From assembly GCA_038127595.1 (NCBI GenBank), contig JAYPIC010000025.1, positions 1-12,619 of the forward strand: a DNA stretch of 12,619 nt, written 5' to 3'. A program made the translations under genes and the position numbers. The DNA is from a bacterium (lineage in GTDB: Bacteria > Fidelibacterota > Marinisomatia > Marinisomatales > UBA1611). The notes beneath the pieces are model-generated. The model saw only the letters and a list, made by a program, of their open reading frames with translations, did no database searches and was not told the origin of the DNA. Shown one piece after another: positions 1,377 to 12,619 of this stretch (positions within the stretch are counted from its first letter, which is position 1; each line of letters begins with the position of its first letter).

Positions 1377-4300
1377 ATGCGAAAAATTTTAGTCTTAGTT
1401 TTTATACCAATTTTTCTATTCGCCCAACTAAAACCTGTTGAAAATCTTCAAAAAAATGCTCCGAGAGTTTGGACTTTAACTAATGCAATGATCCATACTG
1501 CTCCTGGCGATTTTATCAAAAGCGGGTCTATCGTCATTAGAAATGGCAAAATAGAATCAGTAGGAAGATACATCAAGTCGCCAAAAGATTCTTATGAAAT
1601 AGATATGCAAGGAGCCCATATATATGCAGGTTTTCTTGAAACATGGCTTGAAACAAAATCTTATGATTCAAAATCAAAAAGTAAAAGAAAGCATTGGGAC
1701 TCAAAAGTAAGACCCGATTACAGAGCTGTTGATAATATAGAAGTAAAGGATAAAGCATTAAAAGAGCTTCGAAGCTTAGGATTTACAACAGCTCACATCG
1801 CACCAGATCAAGGTATTTTCAGAGGACAAACAGGTGTAATAAGCTTGTCAGATCAACTGAACTCAATTAATTCCTCAGTTGCACAAGCTATAGATTTTAA
1901 ATACCGGGCCAAAAAAAACAGAGAATACCCTAGATCTTTATTAGGAGTCATTGCTCATATTAGACAGACGTTTTATGACTCTGATTGGTATTTAAAGGCT
2001 CAAGAGATTATACAGGAATATCCATCTGAGAACGAGCCTATATCTTCGAACTCATCTTTAGAAAGTCTTGGCCTGTCTAGAGCCTTAAACAAACCATTTG
2101 TTTTTATTTCATCAAATGAGAACTCTTCATCTAGAGCAATTAATATCGTAAAGGAGTTCAACCTTTCACCTTGGATTTTAGGCAGTGGATATGAATACAG
2201 GGTTCTTGATTATTTTGATGAAGTAAAACCTTTTTTCATCATGCCGATCAACTTTCCAGCAAAGCCAAATGTCACAAAACCAATGAGCGATCTACAATTT
2301 TCTACTAGAGAATTAAAGCATTGGGATATGGCTCCTGACAATTTGCTTTATCTTACAAATTCAGAATTTGACTTTTCAATTACTAGTCATGGCCTCAAGA
2401 AAAAAAATGATTTTCGCAAAAATCTTCAAAGAATTATTGAAAGAGGCTTAAACAAAGATATTGTTTTAGCAGCGCTGACAACCCAACCTGCAGAAATGCT
2501 AGGGTTAGAAAAATCATTCGGGAAAATAGCTAAAGGGTATAATGCAAACTTGGTTGTAGTTGATGGAGATTATTTTGATCATAAATCTAAAGTAGTTAGT
2601 GTTTGGATTGATGGAGAAGAAATATTTATTTCATCAAGAAAAAGCCCATCTTTCTTAGGAAAATGGTCTCTTAAATACAAGGGGACTGCTTATGATTTAG
2701 AAATCAAAGACCTTCTCAAAGGTCAAACCATTGGTACTAGTAATAAAATTTATAGCGGTACAATTAGCTATCAAGGTAGGAAAACTGATTTATACAACAT
2801 AGATATCTATGAATCTTCAATTTCTTTTTCAGTCGATGGCGCTAGCCTCGATCATAAAGGTACATTAACGTTTAACGGAGATTTGACTGACTCACAAATC
2901 ATTGGAAATGGAAAAGGTTTATTTCAAGAATCATCACCTTTCCAAGCAGACAGAAAGAAGAAGGATGTAGAAAAAGATTCTAATTTAGAACCTGCAAGTA
3001 AGTTATCAGTATTTAAACCTGAAGGTGCTTATGGTCTCATAAAAAAACACCCAAAACCTAATGCAGTACTAATTAATGATGCTACACTTTGGACATGCGG
3101 ACCAAAAGGCACTTTAGCTGAATGGGATATATTATTTGTTGATGGAAAAATTGAACAAGTTGCTCCTGACATAACAGTGCCACAAGGAAGTGCAATCTTA
3201 ATAGAAGGAGCAGGAAAACATGTAACGCCGGGCCTAATTGATTGCCATAGCCATTCTGCTGCAAGTAGTATAAATGAAGGCACTCAATATATTACATCCG
3301 AAGTAAGAATGAGTGATGTTTTAGACCCTACAGATATAAATATTTATAGGCAACTAGGCGGCGGGTTAACTACTGCAAATGTTTTACATGGCTCAGCAAA
3401 CCCAATAGGAGGACAAAATGCAGTTATTAAACTTCGCTGGGGCAGCAAGGCAAACCAACTTTTATTTAAAAATGCACCAGAGGGAATAAAGTTTGCTTTA
3501 GGCGAAAATGTAAAACAGGCTAATTGGGGTGGTACAAACCGGTACCCACAAACTCGTATGGGTGTAGAGCAAGTAATGAGGGATGCTTTTAGAGCAGCTC
3601 TTGATTACAAACATGCAAATGATAACTATATGCGCAATGCAAAATATCAAAGAACAAAAATACCCCCTAGGAAAGATCTAGAGCTTGATGCACTTGTTGA
3701 AATACTTGAAGGTGAGAGATTAGTTCATTGTCATTCATATCGTCAAGATGAAATTCTAATGCTCACTCGAGTAGCAGAGGATTTTGGCTTTAAAATAGCA
3801 ACCTTCCAACATGTTCTTGAAGGGTATAAAGTTGCAGATCGGCTCGCTGAACATGGTGCTGGCGCTTCAACTTTTTCTGATTGGTGGCAATACAAATATG
3901 AAGTAATCGATGCAATACCATATAATGGTAGTATGATGGTAAAAAGCAATGTTCTAGTATCATTTAATTCTGATGACGATGAACTTGCGCGAAGATTAAA
4001 TACAGAGGCCGCTAAAGCTATTCAGTATGGTAATCTAGATCCTAACGAAGCTTTAAAGTTGGTAACTATAAATCCAGCAAAACAATTAAAAATTGATAAA
4101 TACGTTGGTTCTTTGGAACCCAAAAAAGATGCTGATTTTGTTATCTGGGATGGTGAACCACTATCTATATATAGTAAAGTTGAAGAAACGTGGATCGATG
4201 GCATTAGATATTATTCCCAGAATGATAATAAGTTACTTGAAGAAAGGGACGCAGAACTAAGGAGCAATATCATTCAAAAAATATTATCGACCAAAGGCCC

Positions 4301-4391
4301 AAGTACCTTTAGTAGTAGCAAGAAAACATCATCAATGCACAATGGTCATAAATGCGACATTTTAGATAATACAGGTGTTTATGATGATTAA
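1377..4391 (+). CDS. Exported double-domain amidohydrolase family protein (degenerate N-terminal barrel, beta-rich linker domain, intact C-terminal metal-dependent barrel)
   Basis: Signal peptide MRKILVLVFIPIFLFA|Q. There are two amidohydrolase repeats, each with the N-terminal beta-sandwich and a C-terminal G(K/S)(I/L)xxxx(N/D)A(N/D) element. Repeat 2 has PGLIDCHSH (DCHSH at 3240-3254), IKFALGEN, HCHSY, FQHVLEG and FNSDD. Repeat 1 has AGFLETWLE in place of the HxH motif. Starts 1 nt after the LOG stop. Confidence 0.9.
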   Translation: MRKILVLVFIPIFLFAQLKPVENLQKNAPRVWTLTNAMIHTAPGDFIKSGSIVIRNGKIESVGRYIKSPKDSYEIDMQGAHIYAGFLETWLETKSYDSKSKSKRKHWDSKVRPDYRAVDNIEVKDKALKELRSLGFTTAHIAPDQGIFRGQTGVISLSDQLNSINSSVAQAIDFKYRAKKNREYPRSLLGVIAHIRQTFYDSDWYLKAQEIIQEYPSENEPISSNSSLESLGLSRALNKPFVFISSNENSSSRAINIVKEFNLSPWILGSGYEYRVLDYFDEVKPFFIMPINFPAKPNVTKPMSDLQFSTRELKHWDMAPDNLLYLTNSEFDFSITSHGLKKKNDFRKNLQRIIERGLNKDIVLAALTTQPAEMLGLEKSFGKIAKGYNANLVVVDGDYFDHKSKVVSVWIDGEEIFISSRKSPSFLGKWSLKYKGTAYDLEIKDLLKGQTIGTSNKIYSGTISYQGRKTDLYNIDIYESSISFSVDGASLDHKGTLTFNGDLTDSQIIGNGKGLFQESSPFQADRKKKDVEKDSNLEPASKLSVFKPEGAYGLIKKHPKPNAVLINDATLWTCGPKGTLAEWDILFVDGKIEQVAPDITVPQGSAILIEGAGKHVTPGLIDCHSHSAASSINEGTQYITSEVRMSDVLDPTDINIYRQLGGGLTTANVLHGSANPIGGQNAVIKLRWGSKANQLLFKNAPEGIKFALGENVKQANWGGTNRYPQTRMGVEQVMRDAFRAALDYKHANDNYMRNAKYQRTKIPPRKDLELDALVEILEGERLVHCHSYRQDEILMLTRVAEDFGFKIATFQHVLEGYKVADRLAEHGAGASTFSDWWQYKYEVIDAIPYNGSMMVKSNVLVSFNSDDDELARRLNTEAAKAIQYGNLDPNEALKLVTINPAKQLKIDKYVGSLEPKKDADFVIWDGEPLSIYSKVEETWIDGIRYYSQNDNKLLEERDAELRSNIIQKILSTKGPSTFSSSKKTSSMHNGHKCDILDNTGVYDD

Positions 4392-5706
4392 AATAATATT
4401 CACCTTATTCCTATTTAGTCTTGGAATTTCAAATGATCAAATTCCCGGGGAAGATCAAAAAAGACCAATTATATTAAAAGGAGGTATTCTACATACAGTG
4501 TCAACAGATATTTTTGAAGGATACGATATACTTTTTTCAAAAGGTAAAATTGTTAGAATAGAGAAAAATATAATGGCGTCTCCAGAAACAGATGTATACG
4601 ATGTCTTTGGTAAACACATAATTCCAGGTTACATCGCGCCAATTACTAGAATCGGATTAGTAGAAATTGGCTTAGTAAAACAGACTAGAGACTTTGCTGA
4701 AAGAGGATCATTCAATCCCAATGTAAAGGCAAATGTAAGCTACAATCCTGATTCTGACCTTATACCTATCACACGTTCAAACGGAGTCTTAGTTGTAAAC
4801 TCCGTTCCTGCAGGAGGTCGCATATCTGGTCAATCATCTGTAATGATGCTTGATGGATGGACATGGGAACAAGCTACATTAAAACATCCATCTGGACTAC
4901 ACATTAACTGGCCCTCAATGAGGATAAATTATGGAGCAAATGTAAAAAAATCTGAAAAACAACAAAAAGAAGAAATTCAAAAGTCAATTAGAGATCTTGA
5001 CCACATGGTCCGTGATGTTAGAGCATACTTTCAACGTATAAAGCAAAGAAGCCGTATCGCAGGCGAAAGACAAAAGTCAGACCTTAGGTTAGAGTCAATG
5101 ATACCATTTGTAGTAGAAAAAAAGAAAATTTTCATTCATGCAGATGAGGCAAGACAGATAAAATCAGCGGTTGAGTGGGCCAAAAAAAATGACCTTAAAA
5201 TTATTATTGTAGGTGGTTCAGATAGTTGGCGACTAACAGATCTATTGGTTAAAAATAACATACCAGTAGTTATTGACCAGGTAGAAAAGATACCTACTCG
5301 CAGATTTGAACCAATCCATTTGCCATACAAGTTACCTTTCTTATTAAAGCAAGCTGGAGTGCAGTTCTGTTTAAATACGATCATTGGTTACCCGCATGAT
5401 GGCAATATACGTAATCTCCCGAATGAGGCTATGCGAGCCGCTGCTTATGGATTGGATAAATCAGAAGCATTACGTTCTATTACTTTAAGCACTGCCGAAA
5501 TTTTAGGAGTTGATGATATGATCGGCTCATTAGATATTGGTAAAGATGCTACATTTTTTATTTCTGAAACACCACCAATGGAAATGAATCCAAAAATTCT
5601 TATGGCATTTATTCAAGGTAAAGAGGTGGATCTCAACAACCATCAAAAAATGCTCTATAAAAAATATCAAGAGAAATATAGAAGACAAGGTCAACTAAAC
5701 CAATAA
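4381..5706 (+). CDS. Exported amidohydrolase-like protein, probable non-catalytic partner subunit
   Basis: Signal peptide (MMIKIIFTLFLFSLGIS) and amidohydrolase fold motifs (ILFSKGKI, GKHIIPGY, IFIHAD, ITLSTAEILG, GSLDIGKDAT). The DxHxH position reads APITR. The start is more likely ATG 4381 or 4384 than GTG 4375, because AGGTG at 4373-4377 looks like the SD. Overlaps the upstream stop codon. Confidence 0.87.
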   Translation: MMIKIIFTLFLFSLGISNDQIPGEDQKRPIILKGGILHTVSTDIFEGYDILFSKGKIVRIEKNIMASPETDVYDVFGKHIIPGYIAPITRIGLVEIGLVKQTRDFAERGSFNPNVKANVSYNPDSDLIPITRSNGVLVVNSVPAGGRISGQSSVMMLDGWTWEQATLKHPSGLHINWPSMRINYGANVKKSEKQQKEEIQKSIRDLDHMVRDVRAYFQRIKQRSRIAGERQKSDLRLESMIPFVVEKKKIFIHADEARQIKSAVEWAKKNDLKIIIVGGSDSWRLTDLLVKNNIPVVIDQVEKIPTRRFEPIHLPYKLPFLLKQAGVQFCLNTIIGYPHDGNIRNLPNEAMRAAAYGLDKSEALRSITLSTAEILGVDDMIGSLDIGKDATFFISETPPMEMNPKILMAFIQGKEVDLNNHQKMLYKKYQEKYRRQGQLNQ

Positions 5707-5730: not shown

Positions 5731-6999
5731 ATGCCGTCCAACAATATAAATATTAAAAGTATAGCTGTAATTGGAGCAGGGGTTATGGGTGCCCAATTAG
5801 CTGCACTTTTTGCAAACAAAAGCATTAGATCATATTTATACGATATCACAACTGATACTGCTACTTCAGGAAGAGATCGGTTAAAAATAATTAAACCACC
5901 GCCGCTTGAACAACCTGAGAACATTGAACTAATTCAAGCCTGCGGCCTTAATAAAGACATTCATGAAATTAAAAAAGTAGATTGGATAATCGAGGCAGTT
6001 CCAGAAAAAATTGAAATTAAAATTGAAGTATTTAAAAAAATCTCTCCATATATACATAAAAGGGCAATACTATCATCGAACACATCTGGCATTACGTTAA
6101 ATGAACTCATTAAAAACCTACCAGAAAACTTAAAAAGTAGGTTTTTGATTACTCATTTTTTTAATCCACCAAGATATATGAAGCTTTTGGAGATCGTAAA
6201 AAATAAGCAAACATCACTAGAAATTTATAACTCATTAATAAGCTTTTGCAGATCAATATTAAATAAAGGAATAGTGCCAGCTAAAGACAATCCAAATTTC
6301 ATTGGCAATAGAGTTGGAATATTCAGTTTAATGTCCGCAATTAAATTAAGTATCATTAAAAATATTAAAATTGAGGAAGTAGATTTTTTAACAGGGGCTA
6401 TATGCGGAAGACCAAAAAGCGCAACATTTAGAACGGCAGACATCATTGGGTTAGACACACTAGAAAGTGTAGCTATGACCACACATGACAAATCAAAAGA
6501 TGATGAGTCGATTGAGGTGTTTAAACCTCCAAGCATAATAAAAATACTTATAAAGAATAATTACTTAGGACAAAAATCAAAATCAGGTTTTTACAAAAAA
6601 AATGATGATGGGGCAATACAAGTTTTTAATCCTGAAAAAAATGAATATCAGCATGTTCAAAAACTAGATCTTGGAATAAATCAAAACATATTAAATAATG
6701 AGAATATAAATGATAGACTAAATGCCATAATAAACTTGGATAATAAATATGGCGATTTTCTATGGCACTCTATTTCAGACATGCTTTTATACTGTGCAAA
6801 TCGAGTTCCTGAAATAACAAGTGAACCAATCAATATAGATAATGCAATGAAATGGGGTTTTGGCTGGCAATTCGGCCCGTTTGAATTATGGCAAATGCTG
6901 GGTTTAGAAAAGACTGTAAAAAGAATGCAAAAAGATAAAAAAAACATCCCAAATTGGATTAGAGAGAAAGTCCTAAAAAAAGAATTAACATTCTTTTAA
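5731..6999 (+). CDS. 3-hydroxyacyl-CoA dehydrogenase, FadN-type, lacking the C-terminal enoyl-CoA hydratase domain
   Basis: Rossmann motif IAVIGAGVMG, DWIIEAVPE, SSNTSG, catalytic THFFNPPRYMKLLE, and FadN-type KDNPNFIGNR, GRPKSATFRTAD, LGQKSKSGFY and IDNAMKWGFGWQFGPFE. Only 422 aa. Confidence 0.9.
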   Translation: MPSNNINIKSIAVIGAGVMGAQLAALFANKSIRSYLYDITTDTATSGRDRLKIIKPPPLEQPENIELIQACGLNKDIHEIKKVDWIIEAVPEKIEIKIEVFKKISPYIHKRAILSSNTSGITLNELIKNLPENLKSRFLITHFFNPPRYMKLLEIVKNKQTSLEIYNSLISFCRSILNKGIVPAKDNPNFIGNRVGIFSLMSAIKLSIIKNIKIEEVDFLTGAICGRPKSATFRTADIIGLDTLESVAMTTHDKSKDDESIEVFKPPSIIKILIKNNYLGQKSKSGFYKKNDDGAIQVFNPEKNEYQHVQKLDLGINQNILNNENINDRLNAIINLDNKYGDFLWHSISDMLLYCANRVPEITSEPINIDNAMKWGFGWQFGPFELWQMLGLEKTVKRMQKDKKNIPNWIREKVLKKELTFF

Positions 7000-7019: not shown

Positions 7020-7769
7020 TTATAATCTGGGTATTCTTTTCAAACTACTTTCTCGGAATAATTTAGAATCAACATCCGTATTAATCGATACATAATCAAT
7101 GTAAATTTCTGTTTTATGATTTTTTTGGATGTCTCGGACCAAAATTTTTGAAGCTAGCTCATAACTCTTTACCATTTTATATGAATATATTTTTACTTTT
7201 TTCAATTCATCATTTTTGCCAAATGATTTTTCTTTGAGAATAGTAAGATTTTTTTTTGAAACCCATAAAATATGTTTACTGTAAGCACTTTTCAACTCAG
7301 GCTTTGATATAACATTTAAAACATAACAATCGACACCATTAAATAGTTCATCATTTAAGCGGTCATAATTATTATCAGAGAGCACTCTGCTATTTAAATC
7401 TTCATAGCTCAGATCTGAACCCATGAATGAATCATTCATCCTATTTGAATTTATTCTGCGAATTTTATTAAAGGCAGGCAGCCACATTCGTATTTCATTA
7501 TCTTTGTCTTCATATTCTTTCCTTAGGAAAGATATGCCTCTATCTGCCTTAGGTTCTAAAACCCATATGATCTGATTCTTGCCAATGTTATTTGATTTTG
7601 ATAATAATATATTTTCACGGGATTTATTTTTTGCATTTGTTAGCACCATGGAAATTCTACTAAATACACTTTGTGGCCTTTCCTTATTATCAAGTTTTTG
7701 TGCTATATCAAGACCAGATTGCGAAAAAGAAATCGTTATGCTGCAAAAAAGTGGAACAAACGCCCTCAT
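7020..7769 (-). CDS. LolA-like outer-membrane lipoprotein-sorting family protein (LolA_like/DUF1329-related periplasmic carrier)
   Basis: Signal peptide plus family motifs EPKADRGISFL, MWLPAFNKIRRI, SFMGSDLSYEDL, DCYVL and YSKHILWV. ATGA start/stop overlap with the MMPL gene at 7766-7769. Confidence 0.88.
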   Translation of the reverse strand: MRAFVPLFCSITISFSQSGLDIAQKLDNKERPQSVFSRISMVLTNAKNKSRENILLSKSNNIGKNQIIWVLEPKADRGISFLRKEYEDKDNEIRMWLPAFNKIRRINSNRMNDSFMGSDLSYEDLNSRVLSDNNYDRLNDELFNGVDCYVLNVISKPELKSAYSKHILWVSKKNLTILKEKSFGKNDELKKVKIYSYKMVKSYELASKILVRDIQKNHKTEIYIDYVSINTDVDSKLFRESSLKRIPRL

Positions 7770-10063
7770 AATATTTGTTTTTTTTTCAAAATTTCAGTTA
7801 AAGAAGCTAATAAAGTAAGTGTTCCTATAGAAGTCGCAAGCATTGCAAAAACCATTAATCCCCCAACAAATTGCACAGGTATGAAATTAGAAAAAATTAA
7901 CGCACCAAAAGACATATTTGAAGCTGAGTCGAGTACTATTGGATAACCAACTTCATTGAATGTTTCGGTTGAATTTTTGTCTGATTTATCTTTAGGGCGA
8001 TTAACTTTAAAATAATATATATAGTGGATAGAAAAATCAACTCCCACCCCAATAATAACAGATGACAATAAGGCAGTAACATGACTTAAATAAATTCCGG
8101 AAAATCCCATTAATCCAAAGTTAATTATTATTGCAGAAAGCAATGGGATAATTGAAAGAATACCCCATGCCATACTTTTAAAAAATAAAGAGGTAATAAA
8201 ACAGATACCGAACAAAGAAGCCACTAGGCTTATAATAGAAGATTCTATAACTAAATAAATCAAATCTCTAATAACAACTCCCATTCCTGTGACAGACACT
8301 CTATCAATTATCTCTAAATCATTTACGTGACTCTGAATGTGATCTACAAACGAAATTATTTGGTCAGTGCTCATCACACTGCTTAAAGCTGTAATTAGAC
8401 TAGTATTATAATTATAATCTACTATGGAAGCTAAATCATCGCTATCCCCAGACATAGAATACATGGCAAGTAGATTACTGATTTTATTCCCATTTTGTGG
8501 AATGGTATTAAACTCAGGATTGTTATCCATTAAAGTAAAATGCATTTGCTTAACAGCATCAGCGATAGAATAAGTAGCATTTATAGATGGATTTTCTTTA
8601 AGAGCTTTTTGAAGCTGTTCAATTTCATATAATACGCCAGGATCTTTTACATCACCCTCAACCCGGACACGAAAATCCATAGTGCCTGCCATCTGCTCAT
8701 CAATGAAATCTATGCTTTTTCTAAATTCAGTTCCTTTTTTGAAAAAATTGGCAATATTTACATCCACTTTTACAAACATTAACCCAGAAAAACCAAGCAG
8801 AATGATAATCAGTCCAGTTTTTAATATTTTTAAAGGATTAGATATGATAACTACTCCAATATTTCTTATTGTTTTTTCAAGAATACTTTCCCTTGATATA
8901 GAAATTGACTCAGGATTCCATTTCTTAAATGATATAGCTGCTGGTAAAAAAGTAACACTAAGTATAAAAGCATATAAAATGCCTATACTTAAACATACAC
9001 CATATCCTAGTAACTGGTTTATTGGGGCAAAATAGAGTGCTAGAAATGCAGAAATTGTAGTTACACTGGTTAAAAATATTGGCATTAATAACTTATCAAT
9101 GGAGGCAGATATAGCCTGCCTAGTATCTTTTCCACTCCTCATTTCTTTAAAAAATCTGGTCACAAAATGAACTCCATCTGAATTAGCAATAGTGAGTAAA
9201 ATAATTGGCATGGAAGAGTTTATTATGGTGAAATAAAAATATTTAGATCCTGTATAGTAGGTTATCCAACCCATAACTCCTGCCATCACTATAAGTGACT
9301 GAATTATTATAGAGAATATCAAAAAAACACTAAATACATTTCTAATATTTAGAACAAGTATCCCACACATTAGTCCTAAACCTATAAAAATTAAGGTGGA
9401 AATATCTTTTTTGATCATTGTTGGTACAGACCCGGTAATATACGCTGTCCCACCATAATGGATATCATAATTCATTGATAATAGACTATCGCCTACTTGC
9501 ACTACCCTATTCCTTAATATATCATGAGATACATTGGGTGAAGGTTGAATTATGATATTAAAAAAATCTTCATGTTTACTAACCATTCTATTTTTGATTG
9601 CAGAGTTAGCATTTACATAATTTGCAATATCCTCAGTTGTATGTTCACTTAATTCTCTATTTTTTTGAAGGTCCTCAATCTCAAGAAACCCGTCATTACT
9701 CAAAATTTTAGGAATATTAGAAATACTAGTAACTTTTTCGATTTCTTTAATTTTCTCTAACGCTCTAGTAACATCCCATAATTGGGAAAGCGCTTCTTTA
9801 TTAAAAATGTTTTTTCCCTCTTTTCCAAAAGCAATAAAAATAGATTCTGTACTACCAAATTCATTTTGTACGGCATCCCAAGTCATTTTTGATTCCATTT
9901 TTGTTGGTAGCATTGCCATCATATTATCGTCAACTATAATAAAGCAAAGACCAGAACCAAGGATAAACGTTAAAAAGATGGGGATAAGAATTGATTTCAG
10001 AGGATTGTCTAGGACAATTTTTGAAATCCTAGATTCTTGAGATTTACTACTCTCTGCTATCAC
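7766..10063 (-). CDS. MMPL/RND superfamily exporter (COG1033-type, two-repeat)
   Basis: 765 aa with two repeats of TM + large periplasmic loop + five TM segments. Motifs include TIANSDGVHF, PIFLTSVTTISAF, IGVGVDFSIHY and VGYPIV. GTGA overlap with the ASST stop at 10060-10063. Confidence 0.92.
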   Translation of the reverse strand: MIAESSKSQESRISKIVLDNPLKSILIPIFLTFILGSGLCFIIVDDNMMAMLPTKMESKMTWDAVQNEFGSTESIFIAFGKEGKNIFNKEALSQLWDVTRALEKIKEIEKVTSISNIPKILSNDGFLEIEDLQKNRELSEHTTEDIANYVNANSAIKNRMVSKHEDFFNIIIQPSPNVSHDILRNRVVQVGDSLLSMNYDIHYGGTAYITGSVPTMIKKDISTLIFIGLGLMCGILVLNIRNVFSVFLIFSIIIQSLIVMAGVMGWITYYTGSKYFYFTIINSSMPIILLTIANSDGVHFVTRFFKEMRSGKDTRQAISASIDKLLMPIFLTSVTTISAFLALYFAPINQLLGYGVCLSIGILYAFILSVTFLPAAISFKKWNPESISISRESILEKTIRNIGVVIISNPLKILKTGLIIILLGFSGLMFVKVDVNIANFFKKGTEFRKSIDFIDEQMAGTMDFRVRVEGDVKDPGVLYEIEQLQKALKENPSINATYSIADAVKQMHFTLMDNNPEFNTIPQNGNKISNLLAMYSMSGDSDDLASIVDYNYNTSLITALSSVMSTDQIISFVDHIQSHVNDLEIIDRVSVTGMGVVIRDLIYLVIESSIISLVASLFGICFITSLFFKSMAWGILSIIPLLSAIIINFGLMGFSGIYLSHVTALLSSVIIGVGVDFSIHYIYYFKVNRPKDKSDKNSTETFNEVGYPIVLDSASNMSFGALIFSNFIPVQFVGGLMVFAMLATSIGTLTLLASLTEILKKKQIL

Positions 10064-11535
10064 CGATTATAATTCATTATATTGTAAATGTAAGCCATAA
10101 TATCTTGAAAATTAACTAATGAATCTTCGTTGTAATCTGCTGGTGGTGATTGAGAATAAAACCCGTAATGCATGTCCAAAGCATAAAATAAATCGAATAC
10201 ATCAATTTGGGAGTCAAAATTTATATCCCCAACTGTATAATCTGGGAATGCTGTAGAGTCACCTCCAAAAAATTCAACAGAATACTTTTGTGCTCTTGCA
10301 ATCATAATATTTACACCTGGATATTCATAATCCCATAAAGTATTACCAGCAGAATCGATCTCAAATATCTTGGCATCATCAGCTACAGATATTAATGTGT
10401 TACCATTTTGTAATCTAAAAGCTCCACTTTGAACATTTGAATGAAATCCTCCCGTGTACATCCACTCTATTTGATCTGGTCCGAAAGGGTCTGCACCATT
10501 AATGATATAATTTATACTATCAGTATCAAGAGGTGGCACTATTTCAAAAATAGCTGAGGTTAAATTTCCGTAATTATTATTGTATAATATCAAATTACCT
10601 GCACCTGGATATCCCTCTTTTATCCAGTTGATACCATGCTGACTGTCAAGTCTCTGAGATGAATTAGAACCTCTACCATAAGCTGCAGGATTTCCCCAAC
10701 GGTACAAGAAGTCGCCTCCTTTCCCAGAATTACCACCTGTGTGACCTGATGCTTCTTCTGTTGTTGTACTATGATCAATAATATATATTTCATTTTGGTG
10801 CCTAGAGCTAATTACAATCTGATCAAGTAGTGGATTATAGTCAATCGCATTAATATGCATCCAATCAGCGTTACTTCCACCAGGACCTCCTCCACCTCCC
10901 ACATCACCATAGTTAATATCCATTAACTCTGGATGCTCTGAAACAATGCCATACCCTGGCAAACTCGGATCAGAATCTTGAACCAAATGATCCCATAGGT
11001 GCCACTCCCAAACAATATTAGCACCATTTGGAGGAACTATTTCAAGCTCTAAAATAGCCGTTGACCACATTTCACCTAGAGGATTATTGATAGAAACCCT
11101 ACCCATTGCGTAGGCCTCCGTAGCAGATTTTCTTTCCCATACTATTACTAAAACATTCCCATTCGGAAGTGGCTGGACATCATGATGATGTTGATATGTT
11201 TCGTTAGATATTACGTACTGCCAAATCAGCGTCCCATCCCAAGATATATGAGCAATGCCTCCTCCAACACCGCCAGCACTCATGGTGGGGTTCTCTACTC
11301 TATATGGATATATAATAGAGCTATCCGCAAGAAGATAAGGCATACTAGCTGCACCTCTACTGTGCTCCCAAGTATGGATAACATCCATATTATTATTTAA
11401 TAGATAGCTTGTGCCTCCGGTAGCACCACCAGGCCCACCACCTGTTGGGGAAAACAATGTATAACCATTAAATACTTCAGCGCTTAAAAATGATAATGTA
11501 ATTATCAACTTAATTAAATACCTGAAAATCATCAT
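10060..11535 (-). CDS. Exported aryl-sulfate sulfotransferase (ASST family, beta-propeller) with C-terminal dockerin-like domain
   Basis: Signal peptide MMIFRYLIKLIITLSFLSA|E, making ATG 11535/11532 a more plausible start than TTG 11556. ASST motifs are QHHHDVQPLPNGN, IVWEWHLWDH, DWMHINAIDY, IVISSRH, LYRWGNP, SQH and RLQNGNTLI. There is a duplicated Ca-binding repeat at the C-terminus. Confidence 0.88.
   Translation of the reverse strand: MMIFRYLIKLIITLSFLSAEVFNGYTLFSPTGGGPGGATGGTSYLLNNNMDVIHTWEHSRGAASMPYLLADSSIIYPYRVENPTMSAGGVGGGIAHISWDGTLIWQYVISNETYQHHHDVQPLPNGNVLVIVWERKSATEAYAMGRVSINNPLGEMWSTAILELEIVPPNGANIVWEWHLWDHLVQDSDPSLPGYGIVSEHPELMDINYGDVGGGGGPGGSNADWMHINAIDYNPLLDQIVISSRHQNEIYIIDHSTTTEEASGHTGGNSGKGGDFLYRWGNPAAYGRGSNSSQRLDSQHGINWIKEGYPGAGNLILYNNNYGNLTSAIFEIVPPLDTDSINYIINGADPFGPDQIEWMYTGGFHSNVQSGAFRLQNGNTLISVADDAKIFEIDSAGNTLWDYEYPGVNIMIARAQKYSVEFFGGDSTAFPDYTVGDINFDSQIDVFDLFYALDMHYGFYSQSPPADYNEDSLVNFQDIMAYIYNIMNYNR
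10063..10230 (-). other. Dockerin type I-like domain (duplicated EF-hand-like repeat) at the ASST C-terminus
   Basis: GDINFDSQIDVFD...ADYNEDSLVNFQD gives two D-x-N-x-D-x-x-(I/V)-(D/N)-x-x-D loops, each followed by an amphipathic helix. Confidence 0.8.
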
Positions 11536-11556
11536 ATATATCCAATAACTTCTCAA

Positions 11557-11691
11557 AATAATTTAGGTGAGCATTTAAATACTCATTACATAACTATAGG
11601 CCTCTTAACGATTCAAATAGTTAAGTAAATTATATATATAAGTTAATACAATTATGTTAATCGTTAATTTTCCTAAATTAACATTTCAAAG
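11557..11691. promoter_or_regulatory. Divergent promoter region between the ASST-MMPL-LolA operon and the sulfotransferase
   Basis: Very AT-rich gap between head-to-head genes. It contains several inverted repeats: TTAACGATT 11605-11613 / AATCGTTAA 11659-11667, TTATATATATAA 11630-11641, and GTTAATTT-tcct-AAATTAAC 11663-11682. Confidence 0.55.
11568..11585. promoter_or_regulatory. 18-bp near-perfect palindrome, candidate transcription-factor operator
   Basis: TGAGCATTTAAATACTCA; 8 of 9 symmetric pairs are complementary. It lies about 30 bp upstream of the ASST start in the divergent intergenic region. Confidence 0.55.
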
Positions 11692-12619
11692 ATGAACAGA
11701 AGACTAAAAGCATATAAAATTATTGGTAAGACGTTTGGGGTTTGGCTGTCTACCATTTTTACAGGTTTATTGCTCACTTTGATGAAATTTTTTGTTTCAT
11801 TTTTTTTATTTATGGATAAAATATTTATTAATATTCCAAACAATTCGATCTTTAAAAAACCAATAATAATCGTTGGAAACCCAAGGTCTGGCACCACTTT
11901 TTTGCAAAGATATTTGATCAATAATAGACTAGGCACTGGGTCTCAGCTGTGGCAATTGATTTATCCCTCTATTTTACTACAAAAAATAATAAAATCATTT
12001 TTACCACTGTTAGAAAAAGTAAGCCCTGCCAGACATCATTCAACTGAAGCACATAAAACAAGTCTGACTTCTGTTGAAACTGATGATGTTAGTCTTTTAT
12101 TTAGGCATTTTGATGGCTTTTTTTTATATGGGTTTATTTTTGCTTTTGACGAAAAAGACTTATTTGAATTTTTTGATCCAATGTACAGGGACACAAGCGT
12201 TAGAGATTTTGAATGGTTTGAAAACGTTTGGAAAAACAACTCTTATAAACATAACGCTCCATATGTTGGGAAGCTATTCTCACTAAGCGCGAACCTGCCT
12301 GCATTTCAAAAAAAATTTCCTGATTCAAAAGTACTGTATATGGTTAGAGACCCAATAAACGTGATACCTTCAGGATTAAGCTTAGTTACTGGAGTTCTCG
12401 ACAAAAGATTTGGTTTTTGGAACTTAGACAAAAACGTACAGTCTAGATATATAAAACGACTTTACAATGCACTAGTGACTTTATTAATTCGTTTTCATCA
12501 TGATTGGGTTAGTGACAATATTGATAAATCAAAAGTTTTGATTATTAGGTATGATAAAATGATGTCCAATTTTGAAATAATAATGAATGATATTTTTTCA
12601 TTTATGGATTATGTTCCAT
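11692..12619 (+). CDS. PAPS-dependent sulfotransferase (Sulfotransfer_3-type), 3'-incomplete
   Basis: Manual translation from ATG 11692 is open to the window end (309 codons): MNRRLKAYKIIGKTFGVWLSTIFTGLLLTLMKFFVSFFLFMDKIF...KPIIIVGNPRSGTTFLQRYL...FPDSKVLYMVRDPINVIPS...VLIIRYDKMM. The 5'-PSB loop GNPRSGTT is at 11875-11898 and the 3'-PB R-x7-S motif is at 12346-12372. It is absent from the ORF track because it has no stop in the window. Confidence 0.93.
   Translation, partial: MNRRLKAYKIIGKTFGVWLSTIFTGLLLTLMKFFVSFFLFMDKIFINIPNNSIFKKPIIIVGNPRSGTTFLQRYLINNRLGTGSQLWQLIYPSILLQKIIKSFLPLLEKVSPARHHSTEAHKTSLTSVETDDVSLLFRHFDGFFLYGFIFAFDEKDLFEFFDPMYRDTSVRDFEWFENVWKNNSYKHNAPYVGKLFSLSANLPAFQKKFPDSKVLYMVRDPINVIPSGLSLVTGVLDKRFGFWNLDKNVQSRYIKRLYNALVTLLIRFHHDWVSDNIDKSKVLIIRYDKMMSNFEIIMNDIFSFMDYVP

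Follow-up and report, generated by a model that had tools for sequence, protein, structure and literature searches.

A conserved sulfation cassette inside a general lipid-transporter locus of Marinisomatota

We analyzed a 12,619-base stretch of bacterial DNA (hereafter the window), the first 12,619 bases of the 24,484-base contig C25 (GenBank JAYPIC010000025.1) in a 2.0-Mb, 33% GC, 95.8% complete genome; the close relatives of this DNA are labelled Marinimicrobia/Neomarinimicrobiota, i.e. Marinisomatota. Four of its genes code for a LolA-like protein (LolA1), an MMPL transporter (MMPL1) and an exported aryl-sulfate sulfotransferase (ASST1) on the minus strand, and a sulfotransferase (ST) dependent on 3'-phosphoadenosine-5'-phosphosulfate (PAPS) on the plus strand. 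We find here a conserved sulfation cassette that is embedded in a general lipid-transporter locus. It is real, conserved and undescribed in the papers searched, where no account of the cluster was found, subscription journals and supplements lying outside that search. We further propose, at a chance that we place a little below even, that the cassette acts as an outward sulfate relay across the envelope, akin to that of caprazamycin biosynthesis.

To delineate the conserved unit we searched each gene in the same 331 genomes of the phylum; these are incomplete and related genomes are not independent, so that the counts describe a pattern and do not constitute a test. ST and the START protein encoded downstream of it were each recovered in 70 genomes, 68 of which have both, and a ketosynthase (KS) in 47, all with ST or START and 45 with ST. 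ASST1-like genes occur in 92 genomes at E 1e-80 and, among the matches listed below ~E 1e-109, in 75 genomes that include 68 of the 70 with ST; ASST1 adjoins ST in 60 of the 70. We then fetched 80 ST loci, 35 of them with at least 8 kb on both sides. All 35 contain ASST1, START and an outer-membrane barrel gene, 34 a second ASST (ASST2), 30 a leucine-rich-repeat (LRR) protein, 23 KS, 22 MMPL1 and LolA1 (absent from 13), and five a fused sulfate adenylyltransferase-APS (adenosine-5'-phosphosulfate) kinase (Sat-CysC). On these counts, the core comprises ASST1 divergent from ST-START-barrel, with LRR-ASST2; KS is a frequent member and MMPL/LolA a loose one. Across eight families the core is constant and the flanks vary. 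Two metagenome contigs have the parts on a single strand, short gaps apart, and the order in locus L195 is Sat-CysC, CysQ, LolA-like, ASST2, LRR, ST, START, barrel, KS, ASST1. A 17-kb stretch of the 2.0-Mb source genome holds two of its three ASSTs, both of its LolA-like genes, two of its three strongly scoring MMPL genes and one of its two PF13469 genes. This clustering exceeds chance.

An earlier note, made from the letters of the window alone, had read 7020..12619 as a candidate four-part sulfation and export system. Open reading frame (ORF) calls and Pfam confirm the four genes, their strands and both 4-nt minus-strand overlaps (ATGA at 7766-7769 and GTGA at 10060-10063), and the ST-ASST synteny stands (adjacent in 60/70 genomes and together in 35/35 well-covered loci). 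The conserved unit is, however, larger than four genes, its real core partners START, barrel, KS, LRR and ASST2 lying past the window, and MMPL/LolA are not dedicated to it. The suggestion that the sequence downstream of 12619 be inspected for PAPS-supply or lipid/polyketide genes proved well founded, as both Sat-CysC and a lipid/polyketide condensing enzyme (KS) are found there (Table 1).

Table 1. Features of the locus on contig C25
Feature	Position	Strand	Basis or remark
LolA-like (LolA1), 249 aa, periplasmic	7020-7769	minus	PF17131 E 5e-44
MMPL1, 765 aa, MMPL/candidate HAE3-type resistance-nodulation-division (RND) inner-membrane transporter	7766-10063	minus	PF03176 E 3.8e-25
ASST1	10060-11556 (ORF from TTG at 11556); 10060..11532 from conserved ATG	minus	PF05935 E 2.4e-19
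Dockerin-like duplicated repeat, ASST1 C-terminus	10072..10236	minus	Orthologue hits and PDB matches of the alignment
39-bp imperfect inverted repeat, core TTAAC-N25-GTTAA, inner GAC/GTC arms	11588..11626		Between divergent units; strandless
PAPS-dependent sulfotransferase (ST)	11692->12619, ends at contig position 12731 past 10-N gap	plus	PF13469 E 8e-17
START protein	12731-13342	plus	Signal-peptide-like start
DUF1302-like barrel	13329-14768	plus	Beta-barrel model, pLDDT 84.8
MxnB/CorB-like ketosynthase (KS)	14782-15744	plus	Closest solved relatives MxnB, CorB
LRR protein	15747-16814	minus	Tail of type IX secretion system (T9SS) type
ASST2	16816-18915	minus	Same ASST motifs as ASST1; T9SS-type tail
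Sat-CysC	18896-20569	minus	PAPS supply
Second LolA-like (LolA2)	20569-21348	minus	After Sat-CysC
106-aa membrane protein	after LolA2		Listed between LolA2 and MMPL2
Second MMPL (MMPL2)	21656-23950	minus	Last listed gene

The likely start of ASST1 is Met9 (ATG at 11532), which is kept in 30/30 aligned orthologues and from which the N-terminus is hydrophobic and resembles a signal peptide. According to a 2026 review, the ASST active site comprises, in E. coli numbering, His252, His356, Asn358, Arg374 and His436 (PMC13426309). Numbered from the TTG at 11556, the ASST1 motif residues are H124/H125, H234, N236, R252 and H307; of these H234/N236/R252 align directly with H356/N358/R374 of E. coli AssT, and H124/H125 and H307, invariant in 30/30, are assigned to the active site by motif order. 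Judged by these residues ASST1 retains the ASST active site. Its predicted model (pLDDT 85.6) has the beta-propeller catalytic domain and matches Cpz4 best (PDB: 9KF6/9KF4; Z 31.7, root-mean-square deviation 3.2 over 328 residues, 17% identity, Foldseek E 4.6e-15), followed by E. coli AssT (Z 25.9), with the next unrelated fold at Z 23.1. ASST1 shares the propeller with E. coli CFT073 AssT (PDB: 3ELQ) but, in contrast to it, lacks the N-terminal sandwich, bears a dockerin-like tail, and is encoded with a candidate donor-making unit rather than with DsbL/DsbI.

The dockerin that the earlier note saw on ASST1 holds for its orthologues, 27/30 of which match PF00404, and the top PDB matches of the tail alignment are dockerins, but the window's own protein falls below the Pfam threshold of E 0.01. 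Relatives exchange dockerin-like for T9SS-type tails and vice versa: 68 of 75 ASST1 tails are dockerin-like and three T9SS-type, as against five and 51 of 58 in ASST2. Both presumably serve as surface-targeting tags; the genome encodes SprA together with 61 T9SS-tail matches. The dockerin-like repeat also occurs in seven further ORFs of the source genome (contigs C12, C17, C20, C79, C88, C2 and C5). Several genomes of families f17 and f11 have two or three tandem ASST1-like paralogues beside ST (L113, L117, L093).

In ST, the loop GNPRSGTT occupies residues 62-69, a single hydrophobic stretch lies near the N-terminus, and G62, P64, R65, T68, R219 and S227 are invariant in 35/35 sequences, R219/S227 being what we take to be the 3'-phosphate motif. 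At the level of sequence, ST keeps the PAPS-binding features. Its nearest solved relatives are 2Z6V and 2ZQ5, and at E 0.01 it matches PF13469/PF00685 only, with no match to the Stf0 family. The gene is cut at the window end by a 10-N scaffold gap at 12620, which two colinear relatives span with 94.8% and 96.4% identity over 17-21 kb.

ASST1 and ST are separated by 159 bp counted from the Met9 ATG (135 bp from the TTG), in place of the roughly 150-bp head-to-head control region described earlier, whose divergent arrangement is upheld and which encloses a conserved palindrome. The latter emerged from an alignment of 72 ASST1-ST intergenic regions, 35 of which contain its core as against 1.9 in shuffles, other spacings giving 2-11; its carriers belong mostly to families f1 and f5. 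Across the genome no site other than the copy at 11588-11626 scores above 13 bits, with a scoring matrix that included the site of a near-identical relative. This operator-like element speaks for shared regulation of the two divergent units. A general promoter motif is ruled out, half-sites not being enriched upstream of 657 genes; a TetR site is not supported, as TetR occurs in the fetched locus of only 14/35 carriers and none of 20 fetched MMPL1 loci that lie apart from the cassette has a site.

Profile ranking places MxnB (E 1e-78) and CorB (9e-77) ahead of the best FabH (1e-64) for KS, in which the Cys-His-Asn triad C106, H247 and N277 is invariant. It is a 3-ketoacyl-acyl carrier protein synthase III (KAS III) and not a type III polyketide synthase (PKS), its best NCBIfam match PRK07204 being below the cut-off and PF00195 scoring 21.6 bits against a cut-off of 27; a separate housekeeping FabH is encoded elsewhere in the genome. 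MxnB (PDB: 4V2P) and CorB (4YUC), the top two solved relatives, are stand-alone pyrone-forming ketosynthases (PMC5506619, PMC4901931). They differ in that no type I PKS supplying chains is present in the Marinisomatota loci; in L043, a Myxococcota locus, a PKS is adjacent. DUF1302 was matched in 9/34 barrel rows (best E 2.6e-8), and fold searches with the barrel returned generic porin/AlgE matches only, at 8-12% identity. The barrel gene contains an in-frame stop at C25 14439-14441 (L001:5440-5442), after which the frame continues to the normal barrel end; it is intact in the closest relative, and the stop may be a real loss or a consensus error. The ESM Atlas yielded generically named sulfotransferase clusters only, and protein homologue searches almost solely close relatives without informative names.

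The 95.8% complete source genome yielded neither a PAPS reductase nor a sulfite reductase, and the same holds for three of four relatives tested; the PAPS of this genome therefore likely serves sulfation. Sat-CysC lies inside the locus in two separate lineages, and in family f17 loci the 3'-phosphoadenosine-5'-phosphate (PAP) phosphatase CysQ lies beside it, which fits the forward direction. One f17 genome has PAPS-reductase-family and sulfite-reductase genes ~10 kb from the cassette (G058:C2:103932-106853).

The association extends beyond the phylum. ST orthologues with 46-53% identity adjoin the same KS in Myxococcota- and Pseudomonadota-labelled genomes, two of them also with START. Of 210 metagenome loci found 80 were kept, and 43, many of them short, were set apart as being without START, barrel and ASST1; these have KS in 16, PAPS-synthesis genes in nine, an ASST of another type in seven and a LolA-like gene in two, one of the latter also with DUF1302 and MMPL. 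In L189 a single strand encodes two ASSTs, KS, ST and CysC, followed by four ASSTs, and unrelated contigs with a GC content of 35-67% again combine KS-ST with ASSTs (L164, L172, L182, L189). The ASST subfamily thus varies from one occurrence of the KS-ST-PAPS-ASST association to another. In L223, an unrelated 67%-GC contig, CysD-CysNC-ST is found beside LolA-like, DUF1302 and MMPL genes.

From the observed gene content, synteny, co-occurrence, catalytic motifs, predicted folds and palindrome we infer the chemical steps, carrier, transport direction and acceptors of the proposed relay as follows. The cytoplasmic ST would use PAPS to sulfate a small lipophilic carrier, probably a KS-made alkyl-pyrone or similar lipid; the START protein and the barrel would carry the sulfated carrier outward, with the MMPL/LolA pair as a likely shared inner-membrane step; and from this carrier the exported ASSTs would hand the sulfate on to acceptors at the surface or outside. 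Somewhat more tentatively still, Marinisomatota may have a co-regulated pipeline dedicated to this task, in which activated sulfate leaves the cell on a reusable lipid or pyrone carrier by way of START, the DUF1302 barrel and an HAE3/LolA pump taken over from elsewhere, and so reaches the surface ASSTs. If this holds, the cassette would provide the missing natural donor for exported ASSTs, allowing sulfation outside the cell, where PAPS is absent; DUF1302/LolA-like/HAE3 modules and the periplasmic START proteins of bacteria would likewise acquire a function. The above review notes that for most ASSTs the natural substrates have yet to be identified and that little is understood of their role in physiology (PMC13426309); the cassette names a candidate donor-making unit and an export route in an abundant ocean phylum, and its enzymes are small and soluble, hence expressible and assayable.

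Among known systems, mycobacterial sulfolipid-1 involves a Stf0-family trehalose sulfotransferase, Pks2/PapA and MmpL8. It shares with the present locus the combination of a sulfotransferase and an MMPL, but here ST belongs to PF13469 and the locus has no PKS or acyltransferase; conversely, we know of no ASSTs, START or outer-membrane barrel in the sulfolipid-1 system. The adp (sulfatostatin) cluster of Streptomyces davaonensis comprises a type III PKS, a sulfotransferase and a PAPS cassette and yields sulfated alkylresorcinols as end products (PMC12135136); it is alike in joining a lipid condensing enzyme to a PAPS sulfotransferase and dedicated PAPS genes, but no ASSTs, START or outer-membrane barrel are known from it. 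For the transport part, the nearest parallel is AmeABCD of Castellaniella defragrans, which is described as an exporter made of an HAE3 RND, a DUF1302 barrel and a LolA-superfamily protein (PMC6394551). At MMPL1 loci, putative HAE3-like RND, LolA-like and DUF1302-like barrel genes likewise share one operon; LolA1, however, is a 249-aa PF17131 protein as against the 451-aa DUF1329 type of Ame, and the locus is linked to sulfation genes and not, as there, to monoterpene catabolism. On C25, no gene resembling AmeC (COG4447) was found to separate or flank MMPL1, LolA1 and the barrel, in a search confined to that neighborhood and not made genome-wide.

The closest chemical precedent is the caprazamycin relay, in which a PKS-made pyrone is handled by the PAPS sulfotransferase Cpz8 and the ASST Cpz4 (PMC4257720, PMC4924298). 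The caprazamycin cluster (Streptomyces sp. MK730-62F2) likewise brings a condensing enzyme, a PAPS sulfotransferase and an ASST together, but the condensing enzyme is the type III PKS Cpz6 in place of the often missing CorB/MxnB-like KAS III; in addition, the cassette has two surface-tagged ASSTs, START, an outer-membrane barrel, RND/LolA genes and a diderm host, and no antibiotic or acceptor pathway in the cluster. The earlier note's comparison with caprazamycin survives in the pairing of the two sulfotransferase types and in an ASST fold closest to Cpz4. For want of a type III PKS and acceptor genes, the cassette would resemble that relay in its working without being a member of the system.

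Two core predictions of the relay fail in about a third of the genomes. The search for KS came up empty in 25 of the 70 ST genomes, among them the whole of families f11, f13 and f16, and KS is on that account unlikely to be an obligate carrier maker. In a hand tally of APS kinase over 80 chosen genomes (44 ST-positive, 36 ST-negative), 14 of the 44 ST-positive genomes were without the kinase, and Sat was found in none of the 14, which include one 100% and two 96% complete genomes; 17 of the 36 ST-negative genomes have the kinase. Where Sat-CysC is unlinked, six of 14 fetched loci had surface-polysaccharide neighbors (35 of 74 neighbors scanned); such regions are often lost from assemblies, and assembly loss may lie behind the apparent absence of Sat-CysC. 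Further points against the relay are that five genomes carry ASST1-like genes without ST or START, that MMPL1 is widespread in genomes without ST, that no acyl carrier protein or PKS to supply KS was found at the locus, that no acceptor pathway was found on C25 or recurred in the 80 fetched Marinisomatota loci, and that in the five outside genomes with ST-KS neither a close ASST1 relative nor a barrel was found.

The part taken by MMPL1 and LolA1 has to be weighed separately, since they might have no role in sulfation and be positional neighbors, brought into overlap with ASST1 by TetR loss in the genus. This explanation, itself compatible with a relay for the cassette, we hold to be possible if somewhat doubtful. 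MMPL1 (10 hydrophobic segments in a simple scan; best NCBIfam family TIGR00921, 181.7 bits against a cut-off of 351.9) has orthologues in 179/331 genomes, 113 of them without ST. Congeners with and without the cassette have identical flanks, the cassette being placed between TPK or MMPL2 and TetR-MMPL1 (cassette-free G176 vs G226 and G179 vs G230), and in the ST-negative loci fetched an MMPL1-LolA1-barrel operon is found in 13/13, with TetR upstream in 10. MMPL1 proteins from ST-linked and ST-negative genomes interleave in a quick tree (at least seven changes forced), and on this tree a dedicated ST-linked clade is rejected; MMPL1 lies within 10 kb of ST in only 28/50 genomes with both placed, some being split by contig ends. 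The ASST-MMPL overlap, which the earlier note took for coupling, occurs in 7/49 loci (two of the 49 repeat one genome), all in the window's genus; a TetR gene parts the pair in 14. Given that it is limited to the one genus where TetR is missing, the overlap is likely recent and is no proof of coupling. The pair is thus a widespread candidate HAE3 module and not, as first supposed, a dedicated part of the system. On the other side, f17/f18 loci (L119, L121, L122, L195) have MMPL/LolA interspersed among Sat-CysC, CysQ, ASST2 and LRR on a single strand, L223 again places CysD-CysNC-ST by LolA-like, DUF1302 and MMPL genes, and the cassette brings a barrel of the family that pairs with HAE3/LolA but no transporter of its own. 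This barrel is an old paralogue of that of the MMPL1 operon (31%, E 2e-59) in a separate clade with 96% support; as it is the only such barrel found in the source genome, whose LolA-like genes are all at the locus, MMPL/LolA are tied to the cassette here. The link remains plausible, and the pair is likely a shared inner-membrane step, borrowed rather than dedicated.

For the cassette itself, the product of KS and ST could instead be a sulfolipid delivered by START, barrel and MMPL/LolA to the outer membrane for a structural or signalling role, the ASSTs only remodelling it or sharing its regulation. KS-ST is indeed the deepest unit, adjacent in the outside genomes without ASST1 or barrel and present in 16/43 metagenome loci without START, barrel and ASST1; START, MMPL and DUF1302 are lipid-handling families, and the adp products are end products (PMC12135136). 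We nonetheless regard a sulfolipid end product as unlikely, as two surface-tagged ASSTs with intact motifs accompany ST in 34-35 of the 35 well-covered loci, ASST arrays flank KS-ST-CysC in the unrelated L189, and in the 35 loci KS is often missing, ASST1 never. Still less probable is an inward route, by which surface ASSTs would load sulfate from environmental aryl sulfates onto a carrier, or release a lipophilic compound, for import through barrel, START and MMPL/LolA, with ST reversing or re-sulfating. Such a route would accommodate the 14/44 ST genomes that show no PAPS synthesis and the beta-oxidation genes that border the locus in many relatives, and the direction of DUF1302/HAE3 is not fixed by sequence. 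Yet Sat-CysC is within the locus in two separate lineages, with CysQ in f17, no PAPS-reducing genes were found in the source genome, and general chemistry disfavors the uphill transfer of sulfate to PAP from alkyl or sugar sulfates. The related AmeABCD is, moreover, described as an exporter (PMC6394551).

Several minor observations accompany these results. Outside Marinisomatota, the surroundings of ST/KS repeatedly contain a lipoprotein-like family of ~310 aa with C-x2-C-x2-PAP at its end (L046:4828-5775, L153, L154, L155, L162:12587-13516, L164, L210:5724-6671, L223:15962-16972, L229); two members scanned had no Pfam match at 1e-8, and the family was not found in the source genome. In high-GC contigs a conserved ~320-aa protein is encoded just upstream of ST, often after CysNC (L213, L220:1678-2640, L222, L223:9021-9983, L225, L226:3971-4936, L228, L229:8997-9986). 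Two members scanned gave no Pfam or NCBIfam match; its N-terminal NGDADG motif presumably recalls DHH phosphoesterases, and it is possibly a PAP phosphatase replacing CysQ. Locus L040, from a record titled as a Klebsiella pneumoniae metagenome-assembled genome, carries ST-KS-START like the Myxococcota-type loci, its label seeming doubtful.

A promoter/terminator scan was uninformative (23 promoter-like sites vs 32.2 expected). Metatranscriptome contigs from four runs in four studies match each of the four window genes in part, with 90-99% identity, a weak hint of their expression, as such contigs reveal neither strand nor co-transcription. The 3-hydroxyacyl-CoA dehydrogenase at 5731-6999 of the window is 422 aa long; at the same position family relatives have a ~780-aa FadB with a hydratase domain, preceded by a thiolase. 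At 1377-5706, after a LOG-family gene, the window contains two tandem amidohydrolase-family genes (1004 and 443 aa), a flank found mainly in its genus.

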